Shown: positions 3,901 through 23,263, counted from the stretch's first letter. The stretch is DNA of 28,356 nucleotides from an uncultured virus (IMG/VR IMGVR_UViG_3300032167_005167) (IMGVR_UViG_3300032167_005167), one strand, 5' to 3'. The notes: generated by a model from the letters alone, not told the origin. Numbers and translations are program-made.

Positions 3901-6506
3901 ACGTCTATCTGGCTTATTCAAGCCTGTATGTTCCCTATCATGTATCGAGTTTTTCTGGCGCTCAGGCTGCTTCTCTGTATCTGGTTGGTTACTTGGAAGG
4001 AAATGAGTTCACGCCGCTGGATGTATACCTGACCTGTACGCCACCCACAGAGGAGGATGGTCTCACATATATGCTGCTGGGCACCATGACCTCTACATAC
4101 TATGTCATGCTGTTCCCAGAGCATCCCTTGTATCGTTTTGTCGATGGGGTATTCCAGCCTCTTGCTCAGGTTGCTTATCAAGCGTATGCAGAGGTCGGAA
4201 CGCTTCGTACGGAAACTGAAACAGCCATCGAGCAGACGAATGCAGCGATTGCACTCAAGGCGGACAAGACGACAGTCGATTCGTTGTCCGAGCGAATGGA
4301 CACGGCGGAGCTTAAGCTTGAACCGGACCAGCTCTTAAGTACCATCAAATCAAGTGAGTTGTATCGGTATGAACAATATGCTGGCCGAAACTATGCGCTT
4401 GATTCGAGTGTTGAGTGTTGCTTCACCGGAGGCTATTACACGTACAGTTCAGGTACGGTATCGAGCTATACCGGTGTTCAGGTGAGCGTTTCGGATGATC
4501 TTTACGATCATTCAAGGAACTGTGCGAAAATCCGTATTTCTTTTGACATCAAGAGAACCAATGTGGAGGCAGCTTCAGCAGCGACGGCTAACGTGTATAC
4601 CGGCATCTGGATCTATTATAAGTATTACGACTCATCTTCTGGCACGACGAAGACGACTGGCCGAGGCTATTATCTTAGGACTACAGATTCTGATTTTGCG
4701 GCGACCGATAGCGATTGGGTACGGATTACCAAGGGGCCACTGAACATTTCAAGCTATTCGCCGACAGGTATAGCATACTTCCTTTACGGTACTTCATCTG
4801 CTGTAGGCTCTACAGGCACAGTGCAGTTCAGGAATGTCAAGCTTGAAGTGGGTGATGAGTTTACCTCATGGTCTGCTGCACCTGAGGACTTAAACAATCT
4901 GCCGGATCGTATGACCTCGGCGGAGTCGTCGATATCGCAGCAAGCAAACCAAATCGCCTTGAAGGTAAGCACGTCAACGTATGCTTCTGAGAAGGTGTAT
5001 AGAGGATCTACGGCACCAACTACACTTTACACGAACATGCTTTGGCTCGACACTTCAACCAGTCCGAATCTTCTCAAGAGGTATACGGGCAGTACATGGG
5101 TAGTCGCAGGCGCACAGGAGGTAAAGTCGAGCGGTATCTACATCGGTTCAAACCAGGTATCGATCACAACTGAGAACTTCCTTCTGCAGCTTCTTGATCC
5201 ATCGAACAATGAAAATGTTCTGATGGAAATGTCTGCATCGGGCAATGTAGGCTTTAAGGAGCTCTATGCAGATACGGTCATTTCTGACTCGGTGGCTCAA
5301 GCGTACGCTGGACCGACAAGCATCTACATCAATCCAACTTATACAGGCTCTTCAACAACGTATTACCGATCTTTGGGTGAGGCTGCAAGATCGCTGAATT
5401 ACAGATACCTTCGGTCAGACGTGGTGATCTATTTGCCCTACGGAACAGAAACGTATGAACCTGCTGGTGTTGTGTTTGAGGGAATCTCAGGCCCAGGGAG
5501 ACTGACGATCTACGGCTATACCAGCAACAGCATCATCAATACGTATATTCGGATCAAGGGATGCTTTGCGCATATCTATTTTCAGAATGTGCATCTTCGC
5601 GAGAGCCGATCGCTTAATGGCAGTAATATGCAGTCGTATCTGATCGAATTACAGATGAACCATTATATCGAGTTCTATGGCTGTACTTTGGATGCAAACA
5701 GCATTACGTATGACTCAGTCTATAACAAAGGCTCGTACGTATATATGAACAGCTGTGGCCTGTATAACGCGCAGCAGGGATTGGAGGTCTTTGCTGGGCA
5801 AGCCTTTCTGCTCAATTGCAAGGGAAGCTGTTCATGGGCGATCGTCTCTTATGCAGGTGTTGTGATCGCAGCAGGTACAGTGCCGGCTGGCAGTATCGGC
5901 GCAGGCAATAATGGACAGGTCTTCTGCAACAATGTTACATCTGACTATGGCACAGCGATTCCGACAGTGACGCCGGATCAGAACGGCTTGATCTACGCGA
6001 CAACGACGAAGACGTGGCAAGGCAGCTGGCGATCTGATACCGTGGATGTCATTCAAGGCGTGTATTCGGATTCGGGTTACTATTCGAGTTTGAACTGGAA
6101 TCGAGGCTGCATGTGGTTCTCTCTTGCAAAGAATGTTCTGTCTGGCTGTACGGTTAAATCTGCAACGTTAACCCTTCATAGAAAGACTGGTTCTGGTTCA
6201 GGCTCTGCCAAAACGGTATACCTGTGCGCCATCTCCAATACCTCGGCGAGTGGTACACCGATCATTGCTGCCAATTATGGCGCGATCGGCACCATTGGCA
6301 GGGATAAGCAGGTTACATTTGCAATTCCTGCTGCTGCTGTACAAGGCTTGGCAGACGGAACATATGGCGGCCTTTGCTTGTATGAAACGCCGTATGCATT
6401 TGGCTCTGCGAACTGGTCCGATGCCTATATGCGTATGAGTGGTACTGATACGAGTTATCAACCTTATATCCAATGTGTATATAGCGGCAGCACAGCTGTT
6501 GGCTAA
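933..6506 (+). CDS. Phage tail spike / minor tail host-specificity protein (1857 aa)
   Basis: TTG start with RBS GGAGGAG. Prophage tail N-terminus (CTVTETLNGEWELTLVHP, QPFRIYRV, LGDSVRV), an inserted SH3b domain, an Ala/Ile-rich repetitive shaft and beta-rich C-terminal domains. Confidence 0.88.
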   Translation: MICVYAPDCTDFSNNGLGIVSPQACTVTETLNGEWELTLVHPIDEYGKWQRLTEGCILRAPVPAAMTPQIKLVTQQYQTNTYNVEIYKITTSSDPLRLRSGTGTSYRILGKYKKGSEVIVLEKTTSEWYEVTCPDGKHGYMSAEYLTYERTEQENVQTNVGFSNNMVEARQLRDQPFRIYRVVPELDKVTVYARHIFYDLLDNMLKSVTPASDAVGASVVRSISDRCLSAHGFNFYSDLETSASDVAFENINPVEALLGDDGLTGKYGAELARDWFDVFLVSRVGNVSDVQIREKKNLTGISFDVDETDVVTRIMPTGQDKDGKVMYLPELYLDSANIGAYAHPKWIHLAVSSAKEVTEGDNLKTVSECYEEMRKAAQAEFDAGCDLPTVTLKVDFVNCKDTEEYKQFAALSDIFLGDSVRVIAKRIGIEVSMRMTQYTYDCLTKKYTSVTLGTAAEALEGTTVSARQLASGSITGTKLALNSIGSGHLQNGSVGSLQVKAAAIQSAHIQTAAITQAHIAEALIETLNTNALNAVTAKIKELAAGQITTDELYASIAMISVAQLTTANIINADIEWAQIESLAADIATISKAQITSANIDEANIDWAAISTLTAAVASMVKADIETADIDWSHIKDLATDTAIITQGTAGELYIARLAVTEANMVALTVGELVVKGSDGHFYSVSVDEEGNIVSKLKQVVNDDVADLSIHGTEKLIEGSITAKTLNVQEIFGDNATIRSLIAANIDVDTLFAREATLNAINAMDITSNTYLKLMVSSKADQTAVDALGERMDAAELRITEDAIVSTVTGSQKYKDDLASISVSGGGPEFIAGTQTAATAAWTGQANLTKLVDGQQITYWLPYNGASNVTLELTLADGTKTGAIPCYYSQNTRLGTQYTAGNILHLTYRENATFNTTTIAKGWWADANYNTDTYDRIKGGSIRAKETINYFRFAVGDDEGYFQLDAGKSFDISKPILWVTSTVTAGYTTSNVYLAYSSLYVPYHVSSFSGAQAASLYLVGYLEGNEFTPLDVYLTCTPPTEEDGLTYMLLGTMTSTYYVMLFPEHPLYRFVDGVFQPLAQVAYQAYAEVGTLRTETETAIEQTNAAIALKADKTTVDSLSERMDTAELKLEPDQLLSTIKSSELYRYEQYAGRNYALDSSVECCFTGGYYTYSSGTVSSYTGVQVSVSDDLYDHSRNCAKIRISFDIKRTNVEAASAATANVYTGIWIYYKYYDSSSGTTKTTGRGYYLRTTDSDFAATDSDWVRITKGPLNISSYSPTGIAYFLYGTSSAVGSTGTVQFRNVKLEVGDEFTSWSAAPEDLNNLPDRMTSAESSISQQANQIALKVSTSTYASEKVYRGSTAPTTLYTNMLWLDTSTSPNLLKRYTGSTWVVAGAQEVKSSGIYIGSNQVSITTENFLLQLLDPSNNENVLMEMSASGNVGFKELYADTVISDSVAQAYAGPTSIYINPTYTGSSTTYYRSLGEAARSLNYRYLRSDVVIYLPYGTETYEPAGVVFEGISGPGRLTIYGYTSNSIINTYIRIKGCFAHIYFQNVHLRESRSLNGSNMQSYLIELQMNHYIEFYGCTLDANSITYDSVYNKGSYVYMNSCGLYNAQQGLEVFAGQAFLLNCKGSCSWAIVSYAGVVIAAGTVPAGSIGAGNNGQVFCNNVTSDYGTAIPTVTPDQNGLIYATTTKTWQGSWRSDTVDVIQGVYSDSGYYSSLNWNRGCMWFSLAKNVLSGCTVKSATLTLHRKTGSGSGSAKTVYLCAISNTSASGTPIIAANYGAIGTIGRDKQVTFAIPAAAVQGLADGTYGGLCLYETPYAFGSANWSDAYMRMSGTDTSYQPYIQCVYSGSTAVG

Positions 6507-6520
6507 GAAAGGAGAAGCAA

Positions 6521-7249
6521 ATGAAAGTAGTGATCCCCCTGGCGGGGCTTGTCCGGATGTGCATCCGATCACCTTACGTCGTAGCACGGCGTAACGACGC
6601 AACACATTATGACCTGACCGGTGAGTCCTTCAATCTGATGAAGGTGACTGCCGATCAGGTCTTTGTATTTCCGGATGAAGTGGACGTGACCGAAGGGCAA
6701 GAACTCAATGATGAGCTGATCATGCAGGCATTGCCGCTTGAACAGTTTATCCGAGTAACTTCTGAAGAAGCGCTTCCGCAGGCTTTGGGCTTGCTTTTGC
6801 GACTGGCGATCGCGGATGGCCGACTTACGGATGCCGAACTTCTCAGTATTCAGCCCGCACTTGAAGGGCGGCTTTGGCAGCCTGGTATTGAGGTGAAAGT
6901 CGGTGATGTCTATACGTTTGGCGCTTTCTTGTGGCGTTGCCTTCAGGATCATACGACGCAGGGAACCTGGGCACCGGATCTTGTCCCGGCACTCTGGCGT
7001 AAGGTCGAAGTGATCGACGAGGATGCTGTTCGTGTTTGGGCTGCAGGCATCGATTATGTTGAGGGCGATGAACTGGCGTACCCTGATGAAAATGGCGAGC
7101 TCTATACATGTTTGCAAGCACATACCTCGCAGGATGGCTGGGAGCCGCCTGTAGTCCCCGCATTGTGGCAGCTTAAAGGCTCAGAGGATGATGCTGGTGA
7201 GGGAGACACGACTGGCCTTGTGAATGACGATAATCAGACGGAAGTTTAA
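6521..7249 (+). CDS. Phage protein with two tandem CBM5/12 (ChtBD3-like) carbohydrate-binding modules
   Basis: Two copies of W..G.....GD...(W/Y).CLQ.HT.Q..W.P..VPALW; RBS AAGGAG. Confidence 0.75.
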   Translation: MKVVIPLAGLVRMCIRSPYVVARRNDATHYDLTGESFNLMKVTADQVFVFPDEVDVTEGQELNDELIMQALPLEQFIRVTSEEALPQALGLLLRLAIADGRLTDAELLSIQPALEGRLWQPGIEVKVGDVYTFGAFLWRCLQDHTTQGTWAPDLVPALWRKVEVIDEDAVRVWAAGIDYVEGDELAYPDENGELYTCLQAHTSQDGWEPPVVPALWQLKGSEDDAGEGDTTGLVNDDNQTEV

Positions 7250-7258
7250 CAGAAGCGT

Positions 7259-7283
7259 AGGCTGCTCAATGGGGCAGCTTTTG
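7259..7283 (+). terminator. Small hairpin, possible terminator between the tail and lysis genes
   Basis: AGGCTGCTC-AATG-GGGCAGCTT followed by TTG. Confidence 0.4.
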
Positions 7284-7311
7284 CTATATCAAAACTAAGG
7301 GGGATAAGAAG

Positions 7312-7770
7312 ATGCGTGATTTTACTATTGATCTGATCTGGACGAAGATCCAGGTCGCCGTAACCGCACTGGGCGGATGGTTCGGCTACATTGTTGGAGG
7401 CGTGGATGGTTTCATGACGGCACTAATTGTTCTTATGGTCCTCGACTACATTACCGGCATCATGTGTGCCATCGTGGACAAGCAGCTTTCCTCTTCTATT
7501 GGATTCAAGGGGATCTTCAAGAAGATTCTGATCATCATGCTTGTTGGTGTTGCGCACGTTGTGGACATGAATGTTGTTGGTTCGCATGATGCGCTGCGTA
7601 GTGCGGTGATCTGCTTCTATGTGTCTAACGAAGGTGTTTCTGTTCTGGAGAATGCTTCTAGGCTGGGTCTGCCTATTCCGGAGAAGCTCAAAGCCGTACT
7701 GGCTCAGCTTCACGACAAGAATGTGTTGCCTGAAGCGGGCACTACGAACAAATTGGGCGACGGCGAATAA
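7312..7770 (+). CDS. Phage holin (Phage_holin_4_1 / toxin-secretion holin family)
   Basis: GG.DG...ALIVLMVLDYITG, LSSSIGFKGIFKK and NEGVSVLENA..LGLPIP motifs; hydrophobic segments; lies directly before the lysin. Confidence 0.92.
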   Translation: MRDFTIDLIWTKIQVAVTALGGWFGYIVGGVDGFMTALIVLMVLDYITGIMCAIVDKQLSSSIGFKGIFKKILIIMLVGVAHVVDMNVVGSHDALRSAVICFYVSNEGVSVLENASRLGLPIPEKLKAVLAQLHDKNVLPEAGTTNKLGDGE

Positions 7771-7800
7771 CCGCCGCCCTTTCCTTTATGGAGGTATGCG

Positions 7801-8877
7801 ATGAGTAGGATCAACACACCGTTTACAAACGAACACTTTGCAGATTTCTGCTTGAAGATGGTTGGTCAGCCGTATTGGTACGGCACTTGCATTTACAAAT
7901 GCACGGAGAGCTTGCGAGCTAGAAAGGCAGAGCAATATCCGTCCCACTATAAGGACAATAGGACAAGTCAGTACCGTCAGGATATTGATGAGAAGAAGGT
8001 TTGTGCCGACTGTGTCGGAGGCTGCAAAGGCTATGCTTGGACCGGCGGTGGACAGGGCGTAGTGGAGTCTATTGGCACGGATAAGACCTATTCCAGCCGT
8101 TATGGTGGAGGGAACTGCCCAGATAAAAGCGCAAATGGCATGTTCTCTTATGCTAAGAGCAAGGGAATGGATTGGGGTACAATCGACACGCTGCCGGACA
8201 TCGCTGGTCTTGTATTGCATAAGGATGGCCATGTTGGCTATACGGTTGGCGATGGCTATGCTGTGGAGTGGAAAGGCTTCAGCAGCGGATGTGTAAAAAC
8301 CGAGATCAGTGAGCGCGGCTGGGTGAATTGGTTCCGGCTTCCATTTATTGACTATGGCGACGCTGTGATTGTTGGGCCCACCCAAGAGGCAGAGGCGGTA
8401 CTGGGTTCTCGTACGCTCAAGAAGGGGATGAAGGGCAGTGATATCAAAGCGATGCAGGAACTGCTTCTTCAGCTTGGGTATGAGCTTCCGAAGTATGGCG
8501 CGGATGGAAAGTTTGGTGCAGAGACGCAGATGGCTGTATTAGCGTTTCAGGCGCATGAAGAGCTTGAACAGGATGGCTTGTATGGTGATCAGACACATGC
8601 AGCCCTGATGGATGCAGTAGCAGACCATGATGAAGGCATGAACGACAAGCCGCAGGAAGAGGAAAAACCAGAGGTGGAAGACAAGACTGTTCTGATCGTA
8701 TCTGACGGTGGTAAGGTAAACATCCGTCAAGGCAATAGTACCAGTTTTGCGCGTATCAGCTCTGTTGCTCCGGGAACGAGACTTACCTATGTGGCAACGG
8801 CTGAAAATGGATGGCATGCTGTGGTCATTGGCGCGAAGGTCGGTTGGGTGTCGGGTCAATACAGCAAAATCGCCTAA
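7801..8877 (+). CDS. Endolysin: NlpC/P60-like (Cys/His) catalytic domain, PG_binding_1 domain and SH3b domain
   Basis: GQPYWYG...ADCVG...GHVG...AVE; LKKGMKGSDIKAMQELL..LGY...ADGKFGAET; C-terminal VNIRQG...GW...GWVSGQY. Confidence 0.85.
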   Translation: MSRINTPFTNEHFADFCLKMVGQPYWYGTCIYKCTESLRARKAEQYPSHYKDNRTSQYRQDIDEKKVCADCVGGCKGYAWTGGGQGVVESIGTDKTYSSRYGGGNCPDKSANGMFSYAKSKGMDWGTIDTLPDIAGLVLHKDGHVGYTVGDGYAVEWKGFSSGCVKTEISERGWVNWFRLPFIDYGDAVIVGPTQEAEAVLGSRTLKKGMKGSDIKAMQELLLQLGYELPKYGADGKFGAETQMAVLAFQAHEELEQDGLYGDQTHAALMDAVADHDEGMNDKPQEEEKPEVEDKTVLIVSDGGKVNIRQGNSTSFARISSVAPGTRLTYVATAENGWHAVVIGAKVGWVSGQYSKIA

Positions 8878-8894
8878 CAGCAAAGCAAAACGAT

Positions 8895-8945
8895 AAAAGC
8901 GGCGGTATTCGTGGGAAGGCATCCCTCGAGTATCGCCGCTTTTTT
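8895..8945. terminator. Probable bidirectional intrinsic terminator between the convergent endolysin and recombinase operon
   Basis: AAAAGCGGCGGTATTCGTGGGA / TCCCTCGAGTATCGCCGCTTTTTT, a ~22-bp imperfect stem with A and T tracts at its ends. Confidence 0.85.
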
Positions 8946-9008
8946 GTGCCCACAATTTGGGATAAACCAAAATGTAGGCGTGATTATTGAAAATGTAGGA
9001 GCAATGGG

Positions 9009-9848
9009 TCACTCCTCAGAATCCTCGTCCGCATCTTCATCGTCGGACTCGTAGTCGTTGTTGCTTGTACCATATAGCTTTTTTTGTGAGAGCTTATGCT
9101 TGCATTTGCGATTATAGATGTTGAGCATTGCTTCAGCAAAACCAAGCGAACCAGGATGGCGCTCTTTGGCAGTACGGGTTATTGCTTTGGGGGATACCAT
9201 GCTGAGGCGCTCCTTGAAGAGATCCTCTTGAAGCCTGTCACCAAATACAACAATCAGCTTTGCTACACCGTTCAGCATGTTTGCAGACAGTGAGTTCTGC
9301 TCGCCTTCCCAAGTGCCAATGCATAGACGGAGTACTTTATCAAGCACATGAAAACCATAACGATCAAAGATACCTTCGACAGCTGCTATTGCGCAGATGG
9401 CGTTCGACTTTTTCACTGAAGTAATCTCGAGGTTATAAGAACGAACGAGGTCATTGATCATGTGGTGCTTTTTGCTGCCTGCTTCCAAATGAGCTGTAAA
9501 GGTTTCGATGGGAACCAACGCACGAGAGTGTTTTTGCTGTTCCGCGAATATCTGTGCTTCATGCTGGTATTCGAGGCTGTCATAGATCATGCACCATACA
9601 GGTGTATCACGGGACATCGACTTAGCTGCAACGATCTCGATCGTGTGCTGACCGTCAAAAACGTAGTTGATGCCGTTTCGGCGGCTGACCTTGACGGGAT
9701 TGATTTGGTAGAGATCAAAATCAGCGACAGCTCTTAGAATTTGAGATTCCGATAGTCTGCGTTGATACTCCTGGTTGGAAACGAGATTCTTGATGGGGAT
9801 CTTTTCAAAAACAACTTTAGGGACATAGGGGCTGTAATCCGTGGCCAT
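9009..9848 (-). CDS. ParB/Srx-fold protein with a DGQH motif (DUF6551-like)
   Basis: YQR...NPVKVSRR....YVFDGQHT...VWC and EAQIFAEQ motifs; acidic tail. Confidence 0.7.
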   Translation of the reverse strand: MATDYSPYVPKVVFEKIPIKNLVSNQEYQRRLSESQILRAVADFDLYQINPVKVSRRNGINYVFDGQHTIEIVAAKSMSRDTPVWCMIYDSLEYQHEAQIFAEQQKHSRALVPIETFTAHLEAGSKKHHMINDLVRSYNLEITSVKKSNAICAIAAVEGIFDRYGFHVLDKVLRLCIGTWEGEQNSLSANMLNGVAKLIVVFGDRLQEDLFKERLSMVSPKAITRTAKERHPGSLGFAEAMLNIYNRKCKHKLSQKKLYGTSNNDYESDDEDADEDSEE

Positions 9849-9851
9849 GGC

Positions 9852-10835
9852 TTACTCCTTGCTTAATACCGCTAAAAGCTCCTCTATGTTGATTTGCAGT
9901 TCCAGAAGAGCTTCTTCCAGTTCTGATTTGGCGCGAAGAGAAACAATTTCAAGGTTCGAGTGGTTGCGTGTTCTTTCGATAGAGCTTGTCCATGAAGGAA
10001 TTGTCAATGTTAGTCCTGTAACTTCTGCATCAGGATCAAACTCTGGCATTGTTTTGATGTTGGTATGCAGGACGATGGGCGGGGGAGCAGGCTGGGATAG
10101 GTCGCTCATGCTGCTGCGGGCGACGCTATACGGAACAAAGGGTTGGGCTTTTTTCTCAAGCAGCATTTGTTGATTGAACTTCTTGATCTCGGGACCGCTC
10201 ATTTTGGAAAGCGCGACAATGTTTCTATGAGATATCTTGTAGCGTCCTGAGAGGATTCGAGGCATCATGGATGGATCCTTTTGAGCGATCTTATCGAGCG
10301 CTTTGGAATACGTTCCATATTTCTCTACTGTACCGTGAGCTAAGTGGTATTCAGCCGCCAAGCGCTCTGATGTACGAAGAGAGTCACTGGATGGCTGCGA
10401 TTGTGTCGAGCGTTGTGTGGAATCATAGGTTTCATATGGAAGGTTTTCTTCGTCTGGTTCGGGTGTATATTGGTTTGCCCCCTTTGAATTCTTACGGTAA
10501 CTAATGATTTTCTCAGCTTCATAGCGCTTACCAATTAAGTACTTCCTTGTTTCCTCAGAAATATTGCGCCGCCCAAGCTGATTAGCGCATATCCATGCAA
10601 TCGCTTCTTCCCGACTAGAAAAATCATGTGTGACGGTGGAGAACGGTATATGATGGCGCGTACAGATCTCATACCGGTTATGACCATCTACAATCACGCC
10701 ATTCCAAATGGTGATCGGATCCCTACAACCGTCAGAAAGAAGATTTGATTCAAGTGTAAGGTATTCATCCTTTAACAGAGGACGAACTAGCTCTCTAAAC
10801 TCGGTGTCGATTAACAGTTTCTGGATCTCGGTCAT
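9852..10835 (-). CDS. ParB-like protein with N-terminal ParB domain and probable HTH
   Basis: IDTEF...L..DG.RDPI..W.G.IVDGHNRYEIC...NQLGRRN box motifs; probable HTH at TSERLAAEYHLAHGTVEKY. Confidence 0.75.
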   Translation of the reverse strand: MTEIQKLLIDTEFRELVRPLLKDEYLTLESNLLSDGCRDPITIWNGVIVDGHNRYEICTRHHIPFSTVTHDFSSREEAIAWICANQLGRRNISEETRKYLIGKRYEAEKIISYRKNSKGANQYTPEPDEENLPYETYDSTQRSTQSQPSSDSLRTSERLAAEYHLAHGTVEKYGTYSKALDKIAQKDPSMMPRILSGRYKISHRNIVALSKMSGPEIKKFNQQMLLEKKAQPFVPYSVARSSMSDLSQPAPPPIVLHTNIKTMPEFDPDAEVTGLTLTIPSWTSSIERTRNHSNLEIVSLRAKSELEEALLELQINIEELLAVLSKE

Positions 10836-11221
10836 AGCGTAACCTCATCGCATTCGACTCTCTGAAGCGTACTCAATGGAAAGCGCGCCGCGCGCATAGA
10901 AGGGATAATACTGCCGGTAAGGCGATACACATGATTTGGCTCTATTTCGGGTTTTAGTGTTCGAAGTTTGCGAAGAAACATTTTGCTGTGGATATCAACG
11001 CAGTTATCAGCGCGTAGGTTCTTCGGATTAAGACGGATTTCTTGGCCACCTGGTACTTCGCAATCAGGACAGACAATAGCAACGATCATATCTTCGGGGT
11101 TGAAAAGCAATTGAATCAGTACCGGATTGCCCAGCAGATGAATGGTCGGCTTATGGATGCGAATACGGTGTTTCTTCATATCGAGCGCTATGCTGATCGT
11201 AGGATTCATCTGTTCTGCCAT
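10832..11221 (-). CDS. Hypothetical protein; stand-alone copy of the domain repeated in the two upstream genes (possibly AbrB-like beta fold)
   Basis: RIRIHKPTIHLLGNPVLIQLLFNPEDMIVAI; overlaps both neighbours; RBS GGAGGTG. Confidence 0.7.
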   Translation of the reverse strand: MAEQMNPTISIALDMKKHRIRIHKPTIHLLGNPVLIQLLFNPEDMIVAIVCPDCEVPGGQEIRLNPKNLRADNCVDIHSKMFLRKLRTLKPEIEPNHVYRLTGSIIPSMRAARFPLSTLQRVECDEVTL

Positions 11222-12003
11222 GAGGAATCACCTCCATTTTGCGTATCAGGCATCAAGGGTGGCTGCGTTGAAGAAGAGGATGACGGTGCTGCTGCAGGCT
11301 CAGTATTCTTTTCTTTGAGACCATAAACAGCATAATTGTCAAATATGTTGATTTGAAGTGATTTGCGATGTTCCTCATAGGGGATGCCGAACTGATCCTG
11401 CCATTCTGCAGGAAAGATTGGGGTTTTGCTCGTCTTCGGCTTCTCACCTTCTTTTACAATGCGTTGGTACATTTCTGTTGAAGTCAGATCGAAGACAAAC
11501 AGGTATTCACCATTTGCACGGATGAGCTTCCCAAGAATCTTATAGCGATAATCGGGATTCCAACCCATAAGAGCACAGATCTTCATAAAAAACATCTTAC
11601 CGGTGACCTGTCGAGGTTTGCGTTTGCCGCCGCTGTTGGTACACCATTGGAAGGAATGAAGATCGGATTCCTGACAAGGCCGAACAGCCAGTTTGCGTGT
11701 CTGTCGGTTGACGAGAAACTGAATATAGTCAGTCTGAGGCAGCCTCTTTATGCAGCCGGAGTTCAAACCGATCTTGTAGTTGCTGAATGTGATTGAGGGC
11801 TCAAATACGTGGGAGAAGAATTCTCTTCGAACGACCTGGTATTTGTCCAGAGAAAACGAATCATCATCCTCGATGATTTCGTCTCCAATGGGCGAATACA
11901 CGTGGGCCAGCTGGCTATCTGTTGCTTCAGGTGTGGGCAGAAGGTCAGGACTCGTAGGTTGATGCGAAGGGAAGAGGGGTTCGTTGAGCATGTAATCGTT
12001 CAT
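11206..12003 (-). CDS. Hypothetical recombinase-accessory protein, paralogous to the C-terminal domain of the serine recombinase
   Basis: Aligns by eye with recombinase residues ~390-570 (KLAVRP/KLAIRP, PRQV/PRQI, GWNPDYRY/GWNPGYKY); ATGA overlap; RBS GGAGG. Confidence 0.8.
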   Translation of the reverse strand: MNDYMLNEPLFPSHQPTSPDLLPTPEATDSQLAHVYSPIGDEIIEDDDSFSLDKYQVVRREFFSHVFEPSITFSNYKIGLNSGCIKRLPQTDYIQFLVNRQTRKLAVRPCQESDLHSFQWCTNSGGKRKPRQVTGKMFFMKICALMGWNPDYRYKILGKLIRANGEYLFVFDLTSTEMYQRIVKEGEKPKTSKTPIFPAEWQDQFGIPYEEHRKSLQINIFDNYAVYGLKEKNTEPAAAPSSSSSTQPPLMPDTQNGGDSSWQNR

Positions 12004-13868
12004 AATTCAACCTCCTGGGGCTTCCAGTCGCCCAATTCTTGCTGGATGAAACTACGTAGTGTGTCGTAATCGGTCACATGAAGCTTCATACCGATATTGC
12101 ATAGTTGGCCTTCAACATGAAGTTGCCATTCTTCACGTGTTTGTTTTGCTAAAACTGAGAAGGGACGTTCCAAGTAAAAGTCATTGCCGAACGTATCGGT
12201 TAATGAAGCTGGAACTCCAACAACCCGATTGTAGACTTTATTCATGGGCTGGATGGATTCCGGCGAGTGCGTATCATTTGGGCGCTGTATATCATGTGGC
12301 TGGAATAGAATGGTGGCTTCTTTAGCATTGAAGATATAGACTTCTTCTGTGCCGTTTTTTACTAGAGAACTGTACATCCGGTATTTATAGCCTGGATTCC
12401 ATCCAAATAGAGAAAACAGCGTATGAAAAAATGCTGCGCAAGAAATCTGTCGAGGGTATTTTTTATCACCAAAGGTTTTTGCCCAAATAACTGCATTGCG
12501 ATTGTCCTTAGAGGTAGGGCGAATAGCCAGTTTCTGCTGTGTAGGGTGAACCAGAAGCTCAACATAAACATCAGAGTTCATTCGGCGAACGCATTCTGCG
12601 CTGAACTTGATCTCTTTATCAGAAAGGGAAACGAATGGGACATGACCGACATCGAATAAGTCGGTATGCGCAATCTCGAACCCGCGCATATCAAAATCAC
12701 CTGCTTCAACCTCAATGCAAACTTCAGAATTGACTGCATCCAGCTCTTCCTTAGTGTAGACCGAAGCAGAAGCTTTGAGGTATTCCAGTTCCTTAAAGCC
12801 ACTCCAGCGAGGATTGATGATCACATATCCTTTGAGCAAACCATTCGGTATAACACGAAGCTCAGGTAAAATGGATTTGTTGCCATATTTGGCATTTTTG
12901 AGCATGTGCTGAACAGCGATGAAATCGTCGTGCGAGATAATGGCATCGTGCTCATCGTAGTAGTGGCTTCGGGGCCGCTCGCCACGATTCTTGACGGAGC
13001 GATGAGAAAGAACATCTGGCGTATATGTTTTACGGGTATAGACATCGCCGCAATAGCGTTCGTTACGCATCGTTGTGGCGACTCCATTTGCTGTCCATTT
13101 TGCATTTCCCTTGTAGGTCTTTTTGCCTAGTTCGGTGAGTGTATCGGCAATTTGCTTAGTTGAGTAACCATATAGGTACATATAAAACATCAGCTTGGGA
13201 ATGTGTGCTGTTTCAGGATCGGGGATTAGTTTGCCATCATCGTTGTGTGTGAAGCCAAGGAGCTTTGGTGTTAGAGGAAGTCCGTGATCTAGGCGCATGC
13301 GCAGAGAAGTCTCCATGCTCCGGCTCTTGTTTCTCGACTCTTCCTCTGCCATGGTTGCCTGGAAGGACAACGCCATGTTTGATGTTTCATTGAGTGAAAA
13401 GATGTTCTCTGCTTCGAAGAAAACGCCGATGGGAGGAAAACGCTCAGATAGCATGCGGACCATTCCAAGAAAGTCGACAACATTACGCGCAAATCTCGAA
13501 ACGCTTTTTGTGATGATCAGGTCGATTTTTCCCGCGCGGCAGTCTGCAATCATTCGATTGAACTCGTCGCGATGTTTGAGTGATGTGCCGCTGATTCCTT
13601 CATCAGCATAGATACCAACAAGCTCCCACTTGGGATGCCGGATAACGAAGTCCTCATAATACTTCTTCTGCAGCTCGTACGACGTGGTCTGACGGACGTC
13701 GTCCGTTGAAACGCGGACATAGACACCGACTCGTTGAGCGACATCATTATCATAGTAGTTGGGGTCTTTTCGCTCGGGATAATATCTGTAATTGTTCTCA
13801 TCAACCTGAACCCGTACCCTTTGACGAATACGATCTTTTTGCTCCTGATTGGTATAGCGGCGACTCAC
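12000..13868 (-). CDS. Large serine recombinase (resolvase and recombinase domains with an atypical C-terminal domain)
   Basis: YVRVSTDD catalytic Ser, YADEGISGT, TKSVSRFARN, AEEESRNKS; recombinase domain with NERYCGD and HDAIIS; GTG start with RBS GAGGTG. Confidence 0.93.
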   Translation of the reverse strand: MSRRYTNQEQKDRIRQRVRVQVDENNYRYYPERKDPNYYDNDVAQRVGVYVRVSTDDVRQTTSYELQKKYYEDFVIRHPKWELVGIYADEGISGTSLKHRDEFNRMIADCRAGKIDLIITKSVSRFARNVVDFLGMVRMLSERFPPIGVFFEAENIFSLNETSNMALSFQATMAEEESRNKSRSMETSLRMRLDHGLPLTPKLLGFTHNDDGKLIPDPETAHIPKLMFYMYLYGYSTKQIADTLTELGKKTYKGNAKWTANGVATTMRNERYCGDVYTRKTYTPDVLSHRSVKNRGERPRSHYYDEHDAIISHDDFIAVQHMLKNAKYGNKSILPELRVIPNGLLKGYVIINPRWSGFKELEYLKASASVYTKEELDAVNSEVCIEVEAGDFDMRGFEIAHTDLFDVGHVPFVSLSDKEIKFSAECVRRMNSDVYVELLVHPTQQKLAIRPTSKDNRNAVIWAKTFGDKKYPRQISCAAFFHTLFSLFGWNPGYKYRMYSSLVKNGTEEVYIFNAKEATILFQPHDIQRPNDTHSPESIQPMNKVYNRVVGVPASLTDTFGNDFYLERPFSVLAKQTREEWQLHVEGQLCNIGMKLHVTDYDTLRSFIQQELGDWKPQEVEL

Positions 13869-14524
13869 TCGAGATCACCTCGGCTTTCCGGCTCATCAAG
13901 AAGCAGGTCCCAGCTACCCGAGGGGAGAAAGCCAGTTTCGTGCAAATCACTCTGGTAATATGACGCAAGCGTAAATATGTCTTCAGAAATGAAATAAATG
14001 CCTATTGGCTTTGGTTGGGCAGCAAGAAAGCGAGCACAGAACGTTATTTCCTCAGGAGTTCTAGTTACATTGCTAACCTTCTGTGTGATGATGAGATCAA
14101 CTTTGCCGTCCATACAGTCCTGAAGAAGACGAGACCAGTTCTTTGCATTCTCCATATAGGGAGCGGTTTGGCCTTCATCGACGTAGAAGTCATAGATCGA
14201 CCAATTGGGGCAAAGGGCAATGGTGTCAATGAATTCCTGCTTGTGGTAGGCAAGGTAATTGGGATACTTGGTTTGATTGAAGTATCGAATGTATACTCCG
14301 ATACGATAGTGCTCATATGGGCTAGGGTATTCGTGAGGGATACTGTCCAGCCAGAGTTTATGCCGTGCAATCGTTCGACGATGGGCCTCGGTTTGCGGGT
14401 CTCTAGCGAATGGACTTTCCTGTGTACCGTATCGCATTGCATCCCACATGTTCGTTTGACCAATTTGCGCTGTTTGCATGGGTTCCAACAGCTGCTGTTC
14501 CGTTTCATCTACGAATTCGCGCAT
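13865..14524 (-). CDS. Resolvase-domain protein, predicted catalytically inactive
   Basis: Resolvase-like GVYIR...W.IYDFYVDEG...RLLQDC..GKVDLIIT...IGIYFISEDIFTL, but YxRxS reads YIRYF and SRFAR reads SNVTR. Confidence 0.8.
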   Translation of the reverse strand: MREFVDETEQQLLEPMQTAQIGQTNMWDAMRYGTQESPFARDPQTEAHRRTIARHKLWLDSIPHEYPSPYEHYRIGVYIRYFNQTKYPNYLAYHKQEFIDTIALCPNWSIYDFYVDEGQTAPYMENAKNWSRLLQDCMDGKVDLIITQKVSNVTRTPEEITFCARFLAAQPKPIGIYFISEDIFTLASYYQSDLHETGFLPSGSWDLLLDEPESRGDLE

Positions 14525-14552
14525 AGCAACCTCCAGGTATATTTATGCGAAT

Positions 14553-14616
14553 ACTATATAATCAAGAGGCATGAAGTACAATAAACCAGAAGTCAAGTGC
14601 ATGACTCCTGGTTTAT
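14553..14616 (-). promoter_or_regulatory. Sigma-A-like promoter of the recombinase operon with an adjacent 15-bp inverted repeat
   Basis: Minus strand TTGTAC-17-TATAGT (14581-14553). Inverted repeat ATAAACCAGAAGTCA / TGACTCCTGGTTTAT (14581-14616), 14/15 match. Confidence 0.55.
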
Positions 14617-14635
14617 GATCAATCATTTTTGTAAC

Positions 14636-14662
14636 AAAAAAGTGAGCATTATCGCTCACTTT
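14636..14662 (-). terminator. Intrinsic terminator of the minus-strand XRE gene
   Basis: AAAGTGAGC-ATTATC-GCTCACTTT perfect 9-bp stem, with a T-run on the minus strand, just after the stop at 14667. Confidence 0.75.
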
Positions 14663-14666
14663 GGGT

Positions 14667-15026
14667 TTACTGGTTATTGTGAATGCTTCGCATAGCTGCT
14701 TTTAGATTCTTAGTTGTTGTGAGGAGCATTTCCATTTCAGCGGGAGTGCAATCAGAGAGGATTTCGCTAAACTCGTGTTGATATAGATTATTTACGGTTG
14801 GTACATCGGCGCGAAGAATTGAGTCTGAAGAAACCTGGAGTGCTTCAACAATGCGCTTGAAACTGGTGACCAGCATTTTTGACCTGCCATTCTCGATGGC
14901 ATTCATTGTGGGCAAAGAAATGCTAGCTTTTTCTGCAAGCTCTGCTTGGCTCATATTCAGCTGAATGCGGGCAGCGCGAATGCGAAGTCCAATCAGTTCT
15001 GGTTCGGTCATCTGGTTTTCGCTCAC
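14667..15026 (-). CDS. XRE-family HTH transcriptional regulator
   Basis: IGLRIRAARIQLNMSQAELAEKASIS....NAIENG; GTG start with RBS GAGGTGG. Confidence 0.9.
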   Translation of the reverse strand: MSENQMTEPELIGLRIRAARIQLNMSQAELAEKASISLPTMNAIENGRSKMLVTSFKRIVEALQVSSDSILRADVPTVNNLYQHEFSEILSDCTPAEMEMLLTTTKNLKAAMRSIHNNQ

Positions 15027-15177
15027 GTTACCACCTCGTAGAGACTATAATTTAGCTTGGACACTATATACAAGTATATTCTATCTTTTTCTGCACGCAA
15101 ATAATATAAAGTAGTGGCTTTATTGAAGTAAGTAGACGTAAATAGAGGTGCAAAAAATTTGTTAGGAGGGCCATACA

Positions 15178-15540
15178 ATGCACCTAAATTACGCAGTCAT
15201 CGGAAAAAGAATCAAGTTGATCCGAACAGAACAGAAACTCTCGCAATTTGCACTGGCGGAGAGAATTGGAAAATCACCGACCTACATTAGTCATATCGAG
15301 AATGGATCTAAGAGCGCGAGTTTGGAGACGTTGGTAACGATCGCTAACGCATTGAAAGTGACAACTGACATACTTCTAGCAGAGTGTCTCGAACATAACA
15401 AAAAGCTAGTGAATTATGAATTCTCAGCTCTGCTTGCTGACTGTAATGAGTATGAAAAGCGTGTGATTATGGAGAATGCGAGAGAGCTCAAGCGGATATT
15501 GAAAGAGAATAGCCATATATCGCATAAGCGCATACGATAA
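15178..15540 (+). CDS. XRE-family HTH transcriptional regulator
   Basis: IGKRIKLIRTEQKLSQFALAERIGKSPTYISHIENG; RBS AGGAGG. Confidence 0.92.
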   Translation: MHLNYAVIGKRIKLIRTEQKLSQFALAERIGKSPTYISHIENGSKSASLETLVTIANALKVTTDILLAECLEHNKKLVNYEFSALLADCNEYEKRVIMENARELKRILKENSHISHKRIR

Positions 15541-15733
15541 GAGTAGACTGCAAGGGAAACGAATCTAGCTTGGTTGTTCTGAGGGTGACTTACAGTTTTG
15601 ATTCTGTATTTGTCATATTGAGTCTTACATTTCCAGCAAACGCTCTTACGTTTCCGAAAATACCAACATTTCATAAAATCTCTGTGATATAGTTAAGCGC
15701 ACAATTGGAAGAAAGCTGGGAGGAGGGGGTTCG

Positions 15734-16405
15734 ATGATCTATGTGATGTCGGATATACATGGACAGAGAAAACAGTTTGAAGAGATGATGGAACTGATTA
15801 ACTTGGAAGATGACGATCACCTTTATATTCTTGGGGACATCGTTGATCGAAATCCTGATGGTATTTCTCTTTTGCAGATGGTCAGACGCATGAAAAACGC
15901 AACAATGCTGCTTGGAAACCACGAACTCATGATGATTGATGCAATCCGAAATCCTGATGATGAGTTTTTGTGGAGACTCTGGTTTCAGAATGGTGGTATG
16001 ACAACCTACGATCACTATATGGAGCTTGAACCGGAGGAGAGAGACGCAATCATTGAGTACATTGATGGACTCCCTGTCAATATTGACATTAGTGTGGGCG
16101 GCGTGAAGTATCTTCTGGTTCATGGAGTGCCACTTGAATCGTGTAAAATCACCAGAAAGAACTCCAATCTTCGTTCTTTATCGGTCTGGTCGCGGATAGA
16201 GACCTGTGATAGCTTTCCGGAAGGAAAGGTGGTTATCTTCGGGCATACCCCGACTGAGAATTATTCGGATGAGGAGACTATGAAAATCTGGCATAAAGAT
16301 TACCTGATCGGGATTGACTGTGGCTGCGCTTATGGAACAAGGGGCAGGCTGGGATGCTTGAGACTTGATGACATGCAAGAATTCTACTCGTCAGGGATGA
16401 TCTGA
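15734..16405 (+). CDS. Metallophosphoesterase, Ser/Thr protein phosphatase (PrpA / lambda NinI-like)
   Basis: SDIHG, GDIVDRNP, GNHE, VHG, FGHTP and IDCG motifs. Confidence 0.9.
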   Translation: MIYVMSDIHGQRKQFEEMMELINLEDDDHLYILGDIVDRNPDGISLLQMVRRMKNATMLLGNHELMMIDAIRNPDDEFLWRLWFQNGGMTTYDHYMELEPEERDAIIEYIDGLPVNIDISVGGVKYLLVHGVPLESCKITRKNSNLRSLSVWSRIETCDSFPEGKVVIFGHTPTENYSDEETMKIWHKDYLIGIDCGCAYGTRGRLGCLRLDDMQEFYSSGMI

Positions 16406-16417
16406 AAGGAAAGTAAT

Positions 16418-16804
16418 ATGGGAAAGTATTCAGATGAGCTAAAACAGGATGCGCTATACATGGCCATAACAGAAGGGTTTTCAAAAGCGCAAAGAAAGTA
16501 TCAAGTTCCGCAATCTACATTGAGACTGTGGCACAAAACAGCGAAAGATTCCGGGCGGCTGCCGGAAGGGTATGCGGATAAAGCGCCAGAGTTAACAGAG
16601 GGAAGTGGAGCACAAGCATCTGCTACGTTTGAGGCTGAGATGGATGAATGCTGTGATGAAGTGCCGGAACAGGATAAGCCGGATGCTATCGCGACAGCCA
16701 TGGCTCTGCTGGTGATCGAAAACATGCGCCTCAGGGAAATGAATCATCAGCTGCGAAAAACGATAGAGACCTTCAAGACGCGAAATGGCCTAGATGAAAG
16801 CTGA
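16418..16804 (+). CDS. HTH plus coiled-coil protein resembling IS3-family OrfA, with no OrfB
   Basis: KYSDELK...AQRKYQVPQSTLRLW HTH and a C-terminal ENMRLREMNHQLRK zipper. Confidence 0.55.
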   Translation: MGKYSDELKQDALYMAITEGFSKAQRKYQVPQSTLRLWHKTAKDSGRLPEGYADKAPELTEGSGAQASATFEAEMDECCDEVPEQDKPDAIATAMALLVIENMRLREMNHQLRKTIETFKTRNGLDES

Positions 16805-16825
16805 AAATACGAGAAGAGGTTCGAC

Positions 16826-17569
16826 ATGAACGCCAGAATCATTATGTGCCAACCCTTGACTGAGGATATGAGCAAAGAAGAATCTATGCAAATTTCTGAT
16901 TTGCGGGGGTTTGTTTGCTTTATTCCTTCGGTTAATATTGGACAGCCCATGGAGATCATGTCTTCAAACATGGTTTCTACCCGGTACAAGGCAGGTCTTG
17001 TGATCCGAGTTGAAGAGGAAGAACAGGGAAGATACCGGATCGCAACGGAAAAAGCCACTTTTGAAGTGCTTAATTTGGAATATGGAAGAAAAAAACCGGG
17101 ACGCATCAAAGCAACCCGGTATATGGAGAGTAGGATATGTCATACGCCGTTGCGAGTAGAGACAGATCCAGATGGTCATTTATTTGCTGATGGTGTTTTT
17201 CCTACGAAGCTCTTTGCTTCTGATTTGCCGGAGCACTTTGTATATGGGTACATGTATAAGAGACACGGATACATCTCTGCAGCAGGAGTAAAGCATTTGC
17301 TCTATGTGCCGAACTATGTCTTCAATCATCGTCATAAGGACGATACGCTGTATATCTCATATGACAGTCCAATTTGGTCAGAGACGGATACATTTGGGAT
17401 ACACTACGCAGGATATAAGCATGCCGTTAGCGGATGGCTGATTGTAGACTTTGTCAATGCTGCAGAGAAGTATTCAGGATATGATGTGTCTGAAATCAGG
17501 CTAGAGATTCAGAAAAAGAGTGACTGGTTTGATGAGAAGTACGGACGCGGAGATAGACTGAATGGGTAG
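16826..17569 (+). CDS. Hypothetical protein (247 aa)
   Basis: Long ORF with RBS GAGG in a co-directional gene string. Confidence 0.7.
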   Translation: MNARIIMCQPLTEDMSKEESMQISDLRGFVCFIPSVNIGQPMEIMSSNMVSTRYKAGLVIRVEEEEQGRYRIATEKATFEVLNLEYGRKKPGRIKATRYMESRICHTPLRVETDPDGHLFADGVFPTKLFASDLPEHFVYGYMYKRHGYISAAGVKHLLYVPNYVFNHRHKDDTLYISYDSPIWSETDTFGIHYAGYKHAVSGWLIVDFVNAAEKYSGYDVSEIRLEIQKKSDWFDEKYGRGDRLNG

Positions 17570-17831
17570 GGCGGACATATTGGAGTTCTTGAACCTAGAG
17601 AATATCCTCACAGTCACTCGTGAACAACTGATAGAAGATACGGACAGCATCCTTGAGCAGATTGATCGTGGATCCGGTCCGGTGATGGTCATCGCAGAAG
17701 GAAAACCGGACTTGATGCTGTTTGCATGGGAAGACTATAAGCGGTGCTTTTCTATGATTTGCCCGCTGGATGAATTCAAGCGGCTGGAGAATATGTTCAA
17801 GGAGAACTGTGATGGAAGTCGAGATCAATGA
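17562..17831 (+). CDS. Phd/YefM-like antitoxin-fold protein
   Basis: VTREQL......ILEQI....GPVMVIAEGKPDLMLFAWEDY matches the Phd pattern (PV.IT..GKP..VL...E.Y). Confidence 0.55.
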   Translation: MGRADILEFLNLENILTVTREQLIEDTDSILEQIDRGSGPVMVIAEGKPDLMLFAWEDYKRCFSMICPLDEFKRLENMFKENCDGSRDQ

Positions 17832-18024
17832 CGAGGGGAAACTGGCTGTAGTATGGCTGAGCAAGAACGAGGGTAAAGAGATGGCACAACCAGTCATAGA
17901 TCAGTATCGAGGAAGTGGTTATAGAGTAGTTATTTTCCGATCAGGAAAAGCTGATCTAGTGCAGAGCACCGCTGCGCTCCTAAAGCACAATAAAGAGTCG
18001 CTTGCAAAAGAGGCAGTTGTTTAA
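17812..18024 (+). CDS. Small hypothetical protein (70 aa)
   Basis: ATG at 17812 with RBS AAGGAG; overlaps the upstream gene. Confidence 0.65.
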   Translation: MEVEINDEGKLAVVWLSKNEGKEMAQPVIDQYRGSGYRVVIFRSGKADLVQSTAALLKHNKESLAKEAVV

Positions 18025-18036
18025 ACTAGCGGTTCA

Positions 18037-18065
18037 ATGACATGTAGCAACATATGGACTATGAT
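18037..18065 (+). promoter_or_regulatory. Sigma-A-like promoter for the 213-aa gene and downstream RNA
   Basis: ATGACA-17-TATGAT; near-palindrome ATGTAGCAACAT covers the spacer start. Confidence 0.55.
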
Positions 18066-18096
18066 ATAGCCAGAAAGAAACGAAGGAGTGAAAGTA

Positions 18097-18738: not shown

Positions 18739-18744
18739 TCATTC

Positions 18745-19127
18745 GCTCAGCCGCTTTGGCTACGACGGGATAGGGGAATTCGGATATCGGTTCAGGTGCA
18801 GATGAACTATAAGGCTGCACATTCTCCTGATGAAATAGACGGCAGGCCAACCATAACTGGTCGTTGAAAAACAATCCCCGTTTCGTTCATCGCTTAACAA
18901 CAACCGGAATCACCCGTCATCTCGCTAATTTGTCAAATCGAACACTCATCCACACGCCTCCGTGCAAGAACGTGGCTAATCACCACAAATAATGCTTTTA
19001 TGCTTACGGGCATTCTCTGTGACAACTGTACCGGTGGAAGCTTCGATTGAAGTGACCTTAGGCACAAGGAGTCATCTCAAATGGTTGAAGTGTTCTCCGA
19101 TTCCTGTCGTACCCAAAGCGGCTGAGC
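18745..19127 (+). ncRNA. Candidate ~385-nt structured non-coding RNA closed by a long terminal stem
   Basis: The 5' arm 18745-18778 pairs with the 3' arm 19093-19127 (first 15 bp perfect, two G-U wobbles on the + strand). Internal hairpins at 18792-18830, 18991-19014 and 19047-19080; G-poor periodic core. Confidence 0.6.
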
Positions 19128-19423: not shown

Positions 19424-19514
19424 GGCTTTCGCCTCCTTTGCAATATCGTGTCCTATCATTATATCGCCATAACAAGAAGATATCAAGACATTTTGCACCA
19501 GAGGAGGTGTTTTT

Positions 19515-20344: not shown

Positions 20345-20355
20345 GTGGAGGATAT

Positions 20356-21662: not shown

Positions 21663-21675
21663 AAAGGAAGTCTAT

Positions 21676-23227: not shown

Positions 23228-23263
23228 ATAGAAGAACAATGTTGGTAGAAAAGAAATGGATAA

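Follow-up and report, generated by a model that had tools for sequence, protein, structure and literature searches.

A six-gene serine-recombinase cassette beside the cI/cro switch of a Candidatus Heliusvirales-type phage

Introduction

Why should a serine recombinase be encoded within a tightly packed set of six genes? Phage serine integrases normally integrate without partners. The question is raised by a 28,356-nucleotide (nt) stretch of DNA from an uncultured virus (IMG/VR IMGVR_UViG_3300032167_005167), referred to as a whole as the window, in which six minus-strand open reading frames (ORFs), O1 to O6, fill positions 9009-14524. The window belongs to a Candidatus (Ca.) Heliusvirales-type phage, a taxonomy carried by 27 phage records related to it by DNA. 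An initial annotation of the window had proposed, as a possibility, that the six genes form an integration/excision machine in which accessory subunits and ParB-like clamps would govern synapsis or directionality or would maintain an excised circle. Few temperate phages of the human and animal gut are as widespread as Ca. Heliusvirales, whose lysogeny module has the block at its heart. The main paper on Ca. Heliusvirales gives integration genes for 97.9% of complete genomes. No published description of the six-gene block was found in the literature searched, subscription journals and supplements being outside it.

The reading of O1-O6 as a multi-subunit (heteromeric) serine recombinase is well supported, and this follows from a fold model that supports binding of O1 to O2. 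With a rough probability of 40%, the cassette and a palindrome beside it, site A, make up a self-contained unit of the Ca. Heliusvirales lysogeny module that would perform lysogeny-related site-specific recombination for the element itself, either integration/excision or resolution. Integration or excision by the cassette is plausible. The points in favour are the synteny of the block, an intact O2, a conserved but dead O1, a triplicated domain, the palindrome, and solo copies of the cassette between cellular genes. Position next to cI is also the usual place of an integrase.

A co-inherited and tightly coupled operon

The junctions from O1 to O6 are overlaps of 4, 4, 16 and 4 nt followed by a 3-nt gap, and a Shine-Dalgarno motif of the GGAGG/GAGG type stands 6-10 nt 5' of every start. 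The set is bracketed by a terminator-like hairpin after the cI-like gene and by a second hairpin, likely a two-way terminator closing the operon, between O6 and the convergent endolysin gene. Because terminators bracket the set, O1-O6 constitute a transcription unit of their own on the repressor side of the prophage switch.

Relatives were collected by a scan of viral contigs with O2, which gave 36 loci, and by a scan of species-representative genomes, in which 606 stretches matched, 557 were confirmed as relatives and the best 80 were kept. The relatives occur in Oscillospiraceae, Lachnospiraceae, Christensenellaceae and other Clostridia, and the viral ones are Ca. Heliusvirales. Isolates carrying the block include Anaerotignum neopropionicum DSM 3847 and strains of Flintibacter, Flavonifractor and Pseudoflavonifractor. 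Of 91 loci that span the block, 86 keep O1-O6 complete and in unchanged order, far beyond chance; two others lack only O1, and three are truncated or interrupted. Gene junctions are mostly overlaps or gaps of at most 20 nt (30-36 viral loci). The order cro, cI, O1-O6 is constant, and the cassette is never without an adjacent cro- or cI-like gene, solo copies included. The gene order and spacing given in the initial annotation are thus reproduced by the ORF listing, and its view of the six genes as one co-inherited, tightly coupled unit is borne out across these loci. In two loci (L094, at ~12029, and L049) the block ends after O3; in L094 another serine-recombinase gene comes directly next and may have been inserted into the cassette.

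The intact recombinase and its dead paralogue

O2 matches the Pfam families Resolvase (PF00239, E = 3.8e-24) and Recombinase (PF07508, E = 1.5e-20, residues 218-324), in keeping with its first assignment as a serine recombinase. The residues R52, S54, R125 and R128 are invariant among 19 aligned sequences, and O2 is therefore predicted to be catalytically intact. The AlphaFold model (mean predicted local distance difference test score, pLDDT, 66) comprises a catalytic domain (residues ~45-160), an alpha-E helix (163-192) and the Recombinase domain (~201-325). Its C-terminal half contains a confidently modelled, beta-rich domain, designated here domain X (~410-525), which is followed by a poorly modelled tail. 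No zinc ribbon was detected as a Zn_ribbon_recom match at E <=0.01 or as conserved Cys pairs after residue 330 in the 19-sequence alignment, and the AlphaFold model has no long coiled coil. O2 thus possesses the Resolvase catalytic domain and the Recombinase domain of large serine recombinases, but not their zinc-ribbon/coiled-coil region. The nearest NCBIfam models are CcrB, CcrC and XisF, with scores far under the cut-offs of two of them (77.8 against 900 for CcrB; 46.8 against 375 for XisF).

O1 is a paralogue of the catalytic domain of O2, its residues 74-186 aligning to residues 46-159 of O2 with 32% identity (E = 6e-20). It is devoid of both the long alpha-E helix and a DNA-binding domain, and its PF00239 score of 20.4 bits falls under the cut-off of 23.3. 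The serine position of the YxRVST motif is occupied by F or Y in 17 of 17 aligned O1 proteins, inside the motif YIR(Y/F)(F/Y)NQT, and the mean column identity of the alignment is 49%. Because this conserved motif holds F or Y in place of the nucleophilic Ser throughout, O1 is a conserved pseudo-enzyme, and the term dead resolvase, applied to it at the outset, is apt.

The complex of the two proteins was predicted in three runs from residues 40-200 of O2 and 50-219 of O1, each supplied as an alignment. The interface score (interaction prediction score from aligned errors, ipSAE) of the fold model was 0.84 in all three runs, and that of the best control was 0.01; the ipSAE mark used is reached by 116 of 157 solved complexes and by 2 of 215 mismatched pairs. 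At least 79% of the contacts were common to the runs, with a partner pLDDT of at least 84. The predicted interface lies between residues 150-176 of O2, a stretch that takes in the beginning of alpha-E, and residues 157-170 and 180-202 of O1. The prediction supports the binding of O2 by O1.

Resolvase-domain genes are very numerous in Clostridia genomes, with 44 matches in Angelakisella and 22 in Anaerotignum neopropionicum, and several of the encoded proteins (635-aa forms) may be further O2-like enzymes.

A domain present three times

Residues 28-172 of O3 align to residues 372-514 of O2 with 27% identity (BLASTP, E = 2e-23). In profile comparisons by hhalign, O4 matches both O3 (probability 95.7%, E = 9e-9) and residues 415-522 of O2 (probability 96.6%, E = 5e-10). 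These matches show that one domain, domain X, is present three times, as the C-terminal domain of O2, within O3 and as O4. O3 consists of a disordered N-terminus, domain X (residues ~65-195) and a conserved C-terminal WxxQFG motif; over residues 65-195 the model has a pLDDT of 85-91 and displays two beta-beta-alpha-beta-beta repeats. The O3 family is large, with 2064 representative clusters at E <=1e-3 and 385 at E <=1e-30 in a 50%-identity library, and an Atlas search with O4 returned unnamed clusters only.

Domain X has no match in Pfam, PHROG or NCBIfam, and sequence searches of Protein Data Bank (PDB) chains with O3, O4 and O5 gave nothing at meaningful E-values. A Foldseek search with domain X of O3 likewise gave nothing at E <=0.001, its weak rows being mostly sliding-clamp domains at E >=0.012. 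A structure search made without reliance on Foldseek placed MraZ (1n0e_A) at the top, with a Z of 4.4 and a root-mean-square deviation of 4.8 over 91 aligned residues, followed by B3 DNA-binding domains with Z of 3.5 and 2.9; no chain reaches a Z of 5. The order of the two beta-beta-alpha-beta-beta repeats is compatible with the swapped-hairpin barrel of MraZ/AbrB, with a best Z of only 4.4. From these weak matches of the model, domain X is probably a DNA-binding barrel of the AbrB/MraZ/B3 kind.

The ParB-like pair

O6 is the most conserved protein of the block. It is a DUF6551 protein (PF20188, E = 2.2e-31; 109.6 bits against a cut-off of 26.8), matching model positions 4-235 of 242. It also matches a PHROG annotated as a ParB-like partition protein (E = 8e-12), and its G-Q-H-T residues are invariant, all of which confirms the DGQH ParB-like assignment made initially. 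In a recent preprint, phage ParB-CTPase-fold proteins fused to DUF6551 are reported to bind CTP or ATP (bioRxiv 10.1101/2025.10.10.680097).

O5 has an N-terminal domain with a conserved DGHNR motif and three conserved Cys residues, a central stretch resembling a helix-turn-helix (HTH), and a strongly conserved C-terminal FDPDA...LTIPSW motif. Its description as ParB-like is weakly supported. On the one side are the DGHNR motif, a match to phrog_498 (E = 8e-4) and an Atlas search in which the nearest Pfam-bearing cluster was ParB_N (0.96, 179 features); on the other, the ParB Pfam models have no match at E <=1 in any of 19 O5 family members, and hhalign finds no match between the O5 and O6 profiles. 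A ParB/Srx fold is probable for the N-terminal domain of O5 on this weak support. ParABS systems are characterised by a ParA/Soj ATPase and a parS centromere; no ParA-type protein was found among the window ORFs scanned with Pfam and PHROGs, as had been noted at the start, and no parS is known here.

The palindrome beside the cI/cro switch

Site A, which the initial annotation had overlooked, is a 36-bp palindrome that sits 56 nt 5' of the O1 start. It reads ATAAACCAGGAGTCA-tgcact-TGACTTCTGGTTTAT on the minus strand. A dyad of the same consensus, ATAAACC-N4-GTCA(A)-N4-7-(T)TGAC-N4-GGTTTAT, is found at this position in most lineages of relatives. Site A is a candidate for an operator of the cassette, for a binding site of its recombinase, or for both. 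The 111 loci (1.85 Mb) were scanned for the 14 conserved positions only, with at most one mismatch and with the N4 blocks unconstrained. This gave 62 distinct sites: 44 lie just 5' of O1, 13 lie 60-100 nt past the 3' end of cro (site B) and five lie elsewhere. Two of these five stand 5' of O2 in loci without O1. L035 and L033 lack O1, and there the palindrome is directly 5' of O2. The N4 blocks of site A are themselves symmetric, with 0, 1, 2, 3 and 4 mismatches in 7, 19, 13, 5 and 0 sites, respectively, where about three mismatches would be expected by chance by our own reckoning. Formation of an RNA hairpin was considered and rejected, there being no strand bias in the mismatches (plus strand G-T 39, A-C 26).

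Half-sites of the palindrome also occur in the window. Further copies of TAAACC-N4-GT[CG]A lie at 14656-14669, in the stem of the cI terminator, and at 24718-24731. The window holds five half-site matches against 1.27 expected, a number equalled in 3 of 100 shuffles, and they may be due to chance.

The placement of the sites bears on a different view of the cassette, in which it controls the switch and not the movement of the element. Its proteins would bind or recombine palindromes A and B on either side of cI/cro, by rearrangement or by clamp loading and spreading in the manner of ParB/KorB, and would thereby set the choice between lysis and lysogeny. This view is consistent with the near confinement of the sites to two places, 5' of O1 and past cro, and with the presence of both in 20 of 76 non-redundant loci, where they bracket the cI-cro cassette. 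It agrees too with a lineage-specific change of the outer motif from TAAACC to TCGACC that is found in site A and site B alike of one element, with the cro- or cI-like gene that always adjoins the cassette, even in solo copies, and with the homology between some relatives that begins exactly at site A. However, site B is missing in most loci, and in the window only a degenerate half-site is found beyond cro. The spacer is 6 nt in one site and mostly 7 nt in the other (A versus B), which fits an operator better than a crossover partner. The cI-cro cassette is inverted as a unit between A and B, or deleted, in none of the 76 non-redundant loci; only the cro-like gene of L082 (Anaerotignum) and L035 is found on the other strand, that of the O operon, unlike in all other loci. 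The sites could, moreover, be mere operators of cI- or Cro-like proteins. Control of the switch in place of element movement is, on balance, unlikely.

A broader form of this idea makes the cassette a lysogeny controller: a recombinase held in check by its dead paralogue would act, with spare DNA-binding domains and nucleoside triphosphate (NTP)-switched ParB-fold proteins, on the palindromes bracketing cI/cro, either rearranging the switch or silencing by clamp loading, and the unit, once freed, would persist as an autonomous chromosomal element. Such a controller is improbable; if it were true, the lysis-lysogeny state of one of the commonest gut phage orders would be determined at the level of DNA, with repressor concentration no longer the sole factor.

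Resolution of multimers is the function brought to mind by a single palindrome immediately 5' of a recombinase operon. In a multimer-resolution and stabilisation module, a resolvase with a res-like site in its own promoter, helped by accessory and ParB-like proteins, would resolve dimers of the phage genome or replicon and aid segregation, in a manner resembling Tn3 res/tnpR or the parCBA operon of RK2. The ParB-fold proteins would suit such a module, and so would a site that, like a res site, stays whole wherever it is found. Several features nevertheless make it a rather unlikely account: no ParA was found among the scanned window ORFs, copies reside in isolate chromosomes and large contigs, and O2 carries, in place of a resolvase HTH, a large Recombinase domain of the sort usual in integrases and transposases. 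Only one dyad is seen, moreover, as opposed to the three subsites of res.

Solo copies and cellular flanks

In three loci (L082, L075 and L090) the cassette and regulator stand alone between cellular genes. The solo copy of Anaerotignum neopropionicum DSM 3847 retains six intact ORFs between a non-ribosomal peptide synthetase-like cluster and genes for a nitronate monooxygenase (NMO) and a permease. The side checked in L075 carries FeoB and PucR genes, and in L090 the neighbours are a LysR gene at one end and RecD2 and UvrD genes at the other. The flanks of L108 and L114 are of mixed kind and common to no other locus. In L100 a rhamnosidase gene follows O6, and homology to relatives of 95-96% identity stops 37 nt past the O6 stop, at the end of a terminator hairpin; host genes begin there in L100, whereas the relatives carry on with other DNA.

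Copies with intact ORFs between cellular genes, and the position on the repressor side, would also be expected of a prophage exclusion or defence module that is expressed in the lysogen and kept by bacteria after decay of the prophage. ParB/Srx domains of the DGQH(R) type are found in DndB and GmrSD-type defence proteins as well. The DndB model TIGR04172, however, gave only a weak hit, of 17.5 bits against a cut-off of 450, and none of the six proteins matches a PADLOC defence model at E <=0.01. Furthermore, cargo of that kind is usually variable, whereas the block is constant throughout a phage order as a core part of the lysogeny module, and a recombinase whose active-site residues are fully conserved in sequence, together with a cis site of its own, would fit DNA rearrangement better. 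A role in defence is accordingly doubtful.

Element ends and other recombinases

Besides O2, most relatives encode between one and three canonical large serine recombinases in the vicinity, usually convergent with O6 and between O6 and the lysis genes. Three or four recombinase places are present in each of the 16 complete Heliusvirales records that have a full-length O2. The lineage of the window itself (L003-L006 and L039) is without canonical recombinases next to O6. In two partial contigs, G006 (72% complete), which is the closest viral relative, and G009 (77% complete), no serine or tyrosine recombinase other than O2 was found.

The ends of the element were sought at several loci. No common att motif was found 3' of O6, where the breakpoints between close relatives range from +6 to +161 nt and those of L098-L100 coincide with the end of a terminator hairpin. 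A direct repeat 3' of O6, CCTACATTTT, was rejected as within chance, an equal number of matches being obtained in 19 of 100 shuffles. For the Anaerotignum solo copy, the flanking NMO gene is kept in 14 of 15 genomes of the genus and homology starts ~80-130 nt upstream of it, the other flank not being syntenic. Logan contigs of feces metagenomes, compared with window positions 4500-24400, consist of short unitigs at ~7x depth. Apparent joints in these contigs, with sides of 20-40 nt, were rejected as rearrangements; some link domain X of O3 with that of O2, or O1 with the N-terminus of O2, and the joints are taken to be cross-matches of relatives.

Nine loci of 85-99.6% identity, from several genera (L024, L042, L043, L050, L054-L057 and L064), have a sharp common left end, …TGGAGTGTAAGACCAATTGAG…. 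The host flanks differ, and in most of these loci the flank carries a terminator-like hairpin at its end, immediately ahead of the junction; this suggests insertion of the L024-type element beside hairpins at many different loci, as opposed to a single attB. A search for a terminal repeat of the left end gave none. The right end was not fixed by comparison of three genomes; homology among the three continues for >80 kb, up to a tRNA-Met gene, and several elements are probably stacked there. The stretches concerned are G002:C6 ~369.3-460.8 kb, G029:C1 to ~94.65 kb and G027:C4 to ~89.6 kb, in three genomes of different genera. Over >27 kb to the right of a common terminase gene they are 99.9-100% identical, and the identity stops inside the tRNA-Met gene. 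Angelakisella has a partial tRNA repeat beyond tRNA-Met, and a tet(M)-like gene (phrog_6880, E = 3.8e-245) and a tyrosine integrase inside the copy. The region looks like a stack of recently transferred elements.

Other features of the window

The coordinates of the cassette and of its surroundings are collected in Table 1.

Table 1. Features of the six-gene block and its flanks in the window.
Feature	Position	Strand	Description
O1	13865-14524	-	219 aa; dead paralogue of the serine-recombinase catalytic domain
O2	12000-13868	-	622 aa, GTG start; serine recombinase
O3	11206-12003	-	265 aa; domain X protein
O4	10832-11221	-	129 aa; stand-alone domain X
O5	9852-10835	-	327 aa; weakly ParB-like
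O6	9009-9848	-	279 aa; DUF6551 protein
cI-like HTH_3 repressor gene	14667-15026	-	Pfam/PHROG; always adjoins the cassette
cro-like HTH_3 gene	15178-15540	+	Pfam; divergent from cI
Holin and endolysin genes	7312-8877	+	Other flank of the block; endolysin convergent with O6
Terminator-like hairpin and T-run after cI	14662-14639	-	Separates cI from the O operon
Hairpin between convergent O6 and endolysin	8895-8943	.	Inverted repeat I1; 22-nt arms, 86% complementarity, flanking A and T runs; likely two-way terminator
Site A, 36-bp palindrome	14581-14616	.	Inverted repeat I12; 15-nt arms, 93% complementarity

Compared with the closest relative, L005, the window has an insertion at 22695-25980 that encodes a 334-aa tyrosine integrase (23264-24268; phrog_1, E = 7.5e-53), an acetyltransferase-like protein and a protein with a GTP-binding domain; it resembles a small element or moron that has entered the early region of the phage. 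A transposase-like ORF (48-857; phrog_3300, E = 1.1e-20) immediately precedes the gene for a 1857-aa tail or minor-head-type protein (933-6506). Within the early region, at 17780-19771, the contig depth in four feces metagenomes rises from ~7x to 15-68x, and this stretch is probably common to other, more abundant organisms or phages in the samples.

Proposed function and mechanism of the cassette

As an integration/excision machine with accessory subunits, the cassette fares unevenly. What stands of that proposal is a single coupled unit in which O1, O3 and O4 are paralogues of parts of O2 and a contact between O1 and O2 has been modelled. Weighing against it are the canonical serine recombinases of most relatives, which are simpler candidates for the integrase, and the location of the block, which is internal to prophages and to several large contigs, with phage genes on both sides and lysis or other phage genes right after O6. 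The palindrome, furthermore, shows no split of the kind that integration makes in an att site: phage contigs, prophages and solo copies all have it whole, and it is thus not a consumed attP. No recombination product or att junction was found, both ends are fixed for no element, and no empty site of the Anaerotignum solo copy could be defined among the 15 genomes of the genus. The left end of the widespread L024-type element, sharp in eight genomes, lies ~7.19 kb upstream of the O2 start. At the level of the proteins, the O1-O2 score may stem from the resemblance to resolvase dimers of known structure and not from real binding, and the assignments of domain X to a fold (no Foldseek match at E <=0.001, no Z >=5) and of O5 to ParB are both weak.

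That O2 alone matters, as an ordinary integrase with five co-transcribed passengers, would accord with the partner-free integration of phage serine integrases, but it is very improbable given that O1, O3 and O4 are paralogues of O2 parts, that the six genes are co-inherited in fixed order, that O1 is clearly constrained despite its dead active site, and that it is predicted to contact O2.

For the heteromeric recombinase, a mechanism can be put forward in which we infer the DNA binding, the roles of the accessory proteins and the reaction performed. O2 would be the only catalytic subunit, with domain X taking the place of the usual zinc-ribbon/coiled-coil domain. O1 would dock on the catalytic core and the start of alpha-E of O2 and so control the timing of active O2 dimers or tetramers. 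O3 and O4, as free copies of domain X, may bind the same DNA or partner as the O2 tail and serve as accessory or directionality subunits, and O5 and O6 would be NTP-switched DNA binders of the ParB/Srx fold that organise the DNA substrate. Expression of the complex would be driven by a promoter of its own on the repressor side, and the complex would act on the palindromic site for a recombination needed in lysogeny, most likely integration/excision, with resolution as the alternative.

If this is true, the cassette would be the first serine recombinase to join a built-in pseudo-subunit, a DNA-binding domain other than a zinc ribbon that is present both in cis and in trans, and partners of the ParB fold. 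It would bear on the integration, retention and switching of gut prophages, and on the design of regulated serine-recombinase tools.

Comparison with known systems

The barrels of MraZ/AbrB and of the plant B3 domains are the nearest, though weak, structural matches of domain X, which has two beta-beta-alpha-beta-beta repeats and finds its best structure matches in MraZ and B3. It differs from them in that the Z of these matches is weak (4.4 and 3.5), that sequence matches in Pfam and the PDB are wanting, and that Foldseek favours sliding-clamp domains. With ParB, KorB, DndB and the phage DUF6551 fusions the cassette shares O6, a DUF6551 member, and O5, with its ParB/Srx-like DGHNR motif. It differs from them in that no ParA partner was found among the scanned window ORFs, no parS is known and the genes are coupled to a recombinase operon, and O5 falls outside the Pfam ParB models.

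The Tn3/gamma-delta resolvase with its res site and the multimer-resolution operon parCBA of RK2 provide a second comparison. In these systems, as here, a dyad-symmetric site lies in the promoter region directly 5' of the recombinase operon. The differences are the large-recombinase architecture of O2, the single dyad, and accessory proteins that belong to other families.

Serine recombinases that need more than one protein are known, namely CcrA/CcrB of the staphylococcal cassette chromosome (SCC) elements and XisF with XisH/XisI. The cassette resembles these as a multi-protein serine-recombinase system, and their families supply the nearest NCBIfam models of O2. Both Ccr subunits are, however, active full-length recombinases, whereas the second "subunit" of the present system is a lone, dead catalytic domain.

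The phage serine integrases of phiC31, Bxb1 and TP901-1, with their directionality factors, are the remaining point of reference. O2 has in common with them the Ser/Arg set of the Resolvase domain, a long alpha-E helix and a Recombinase domain, and a position in the lysogeny region of a temperate phage. It departs from them in having domain X instead of a zinc ribbon and coiled coil, and in its five fixed partners, three of which are paralogous to parts of O2 itself.

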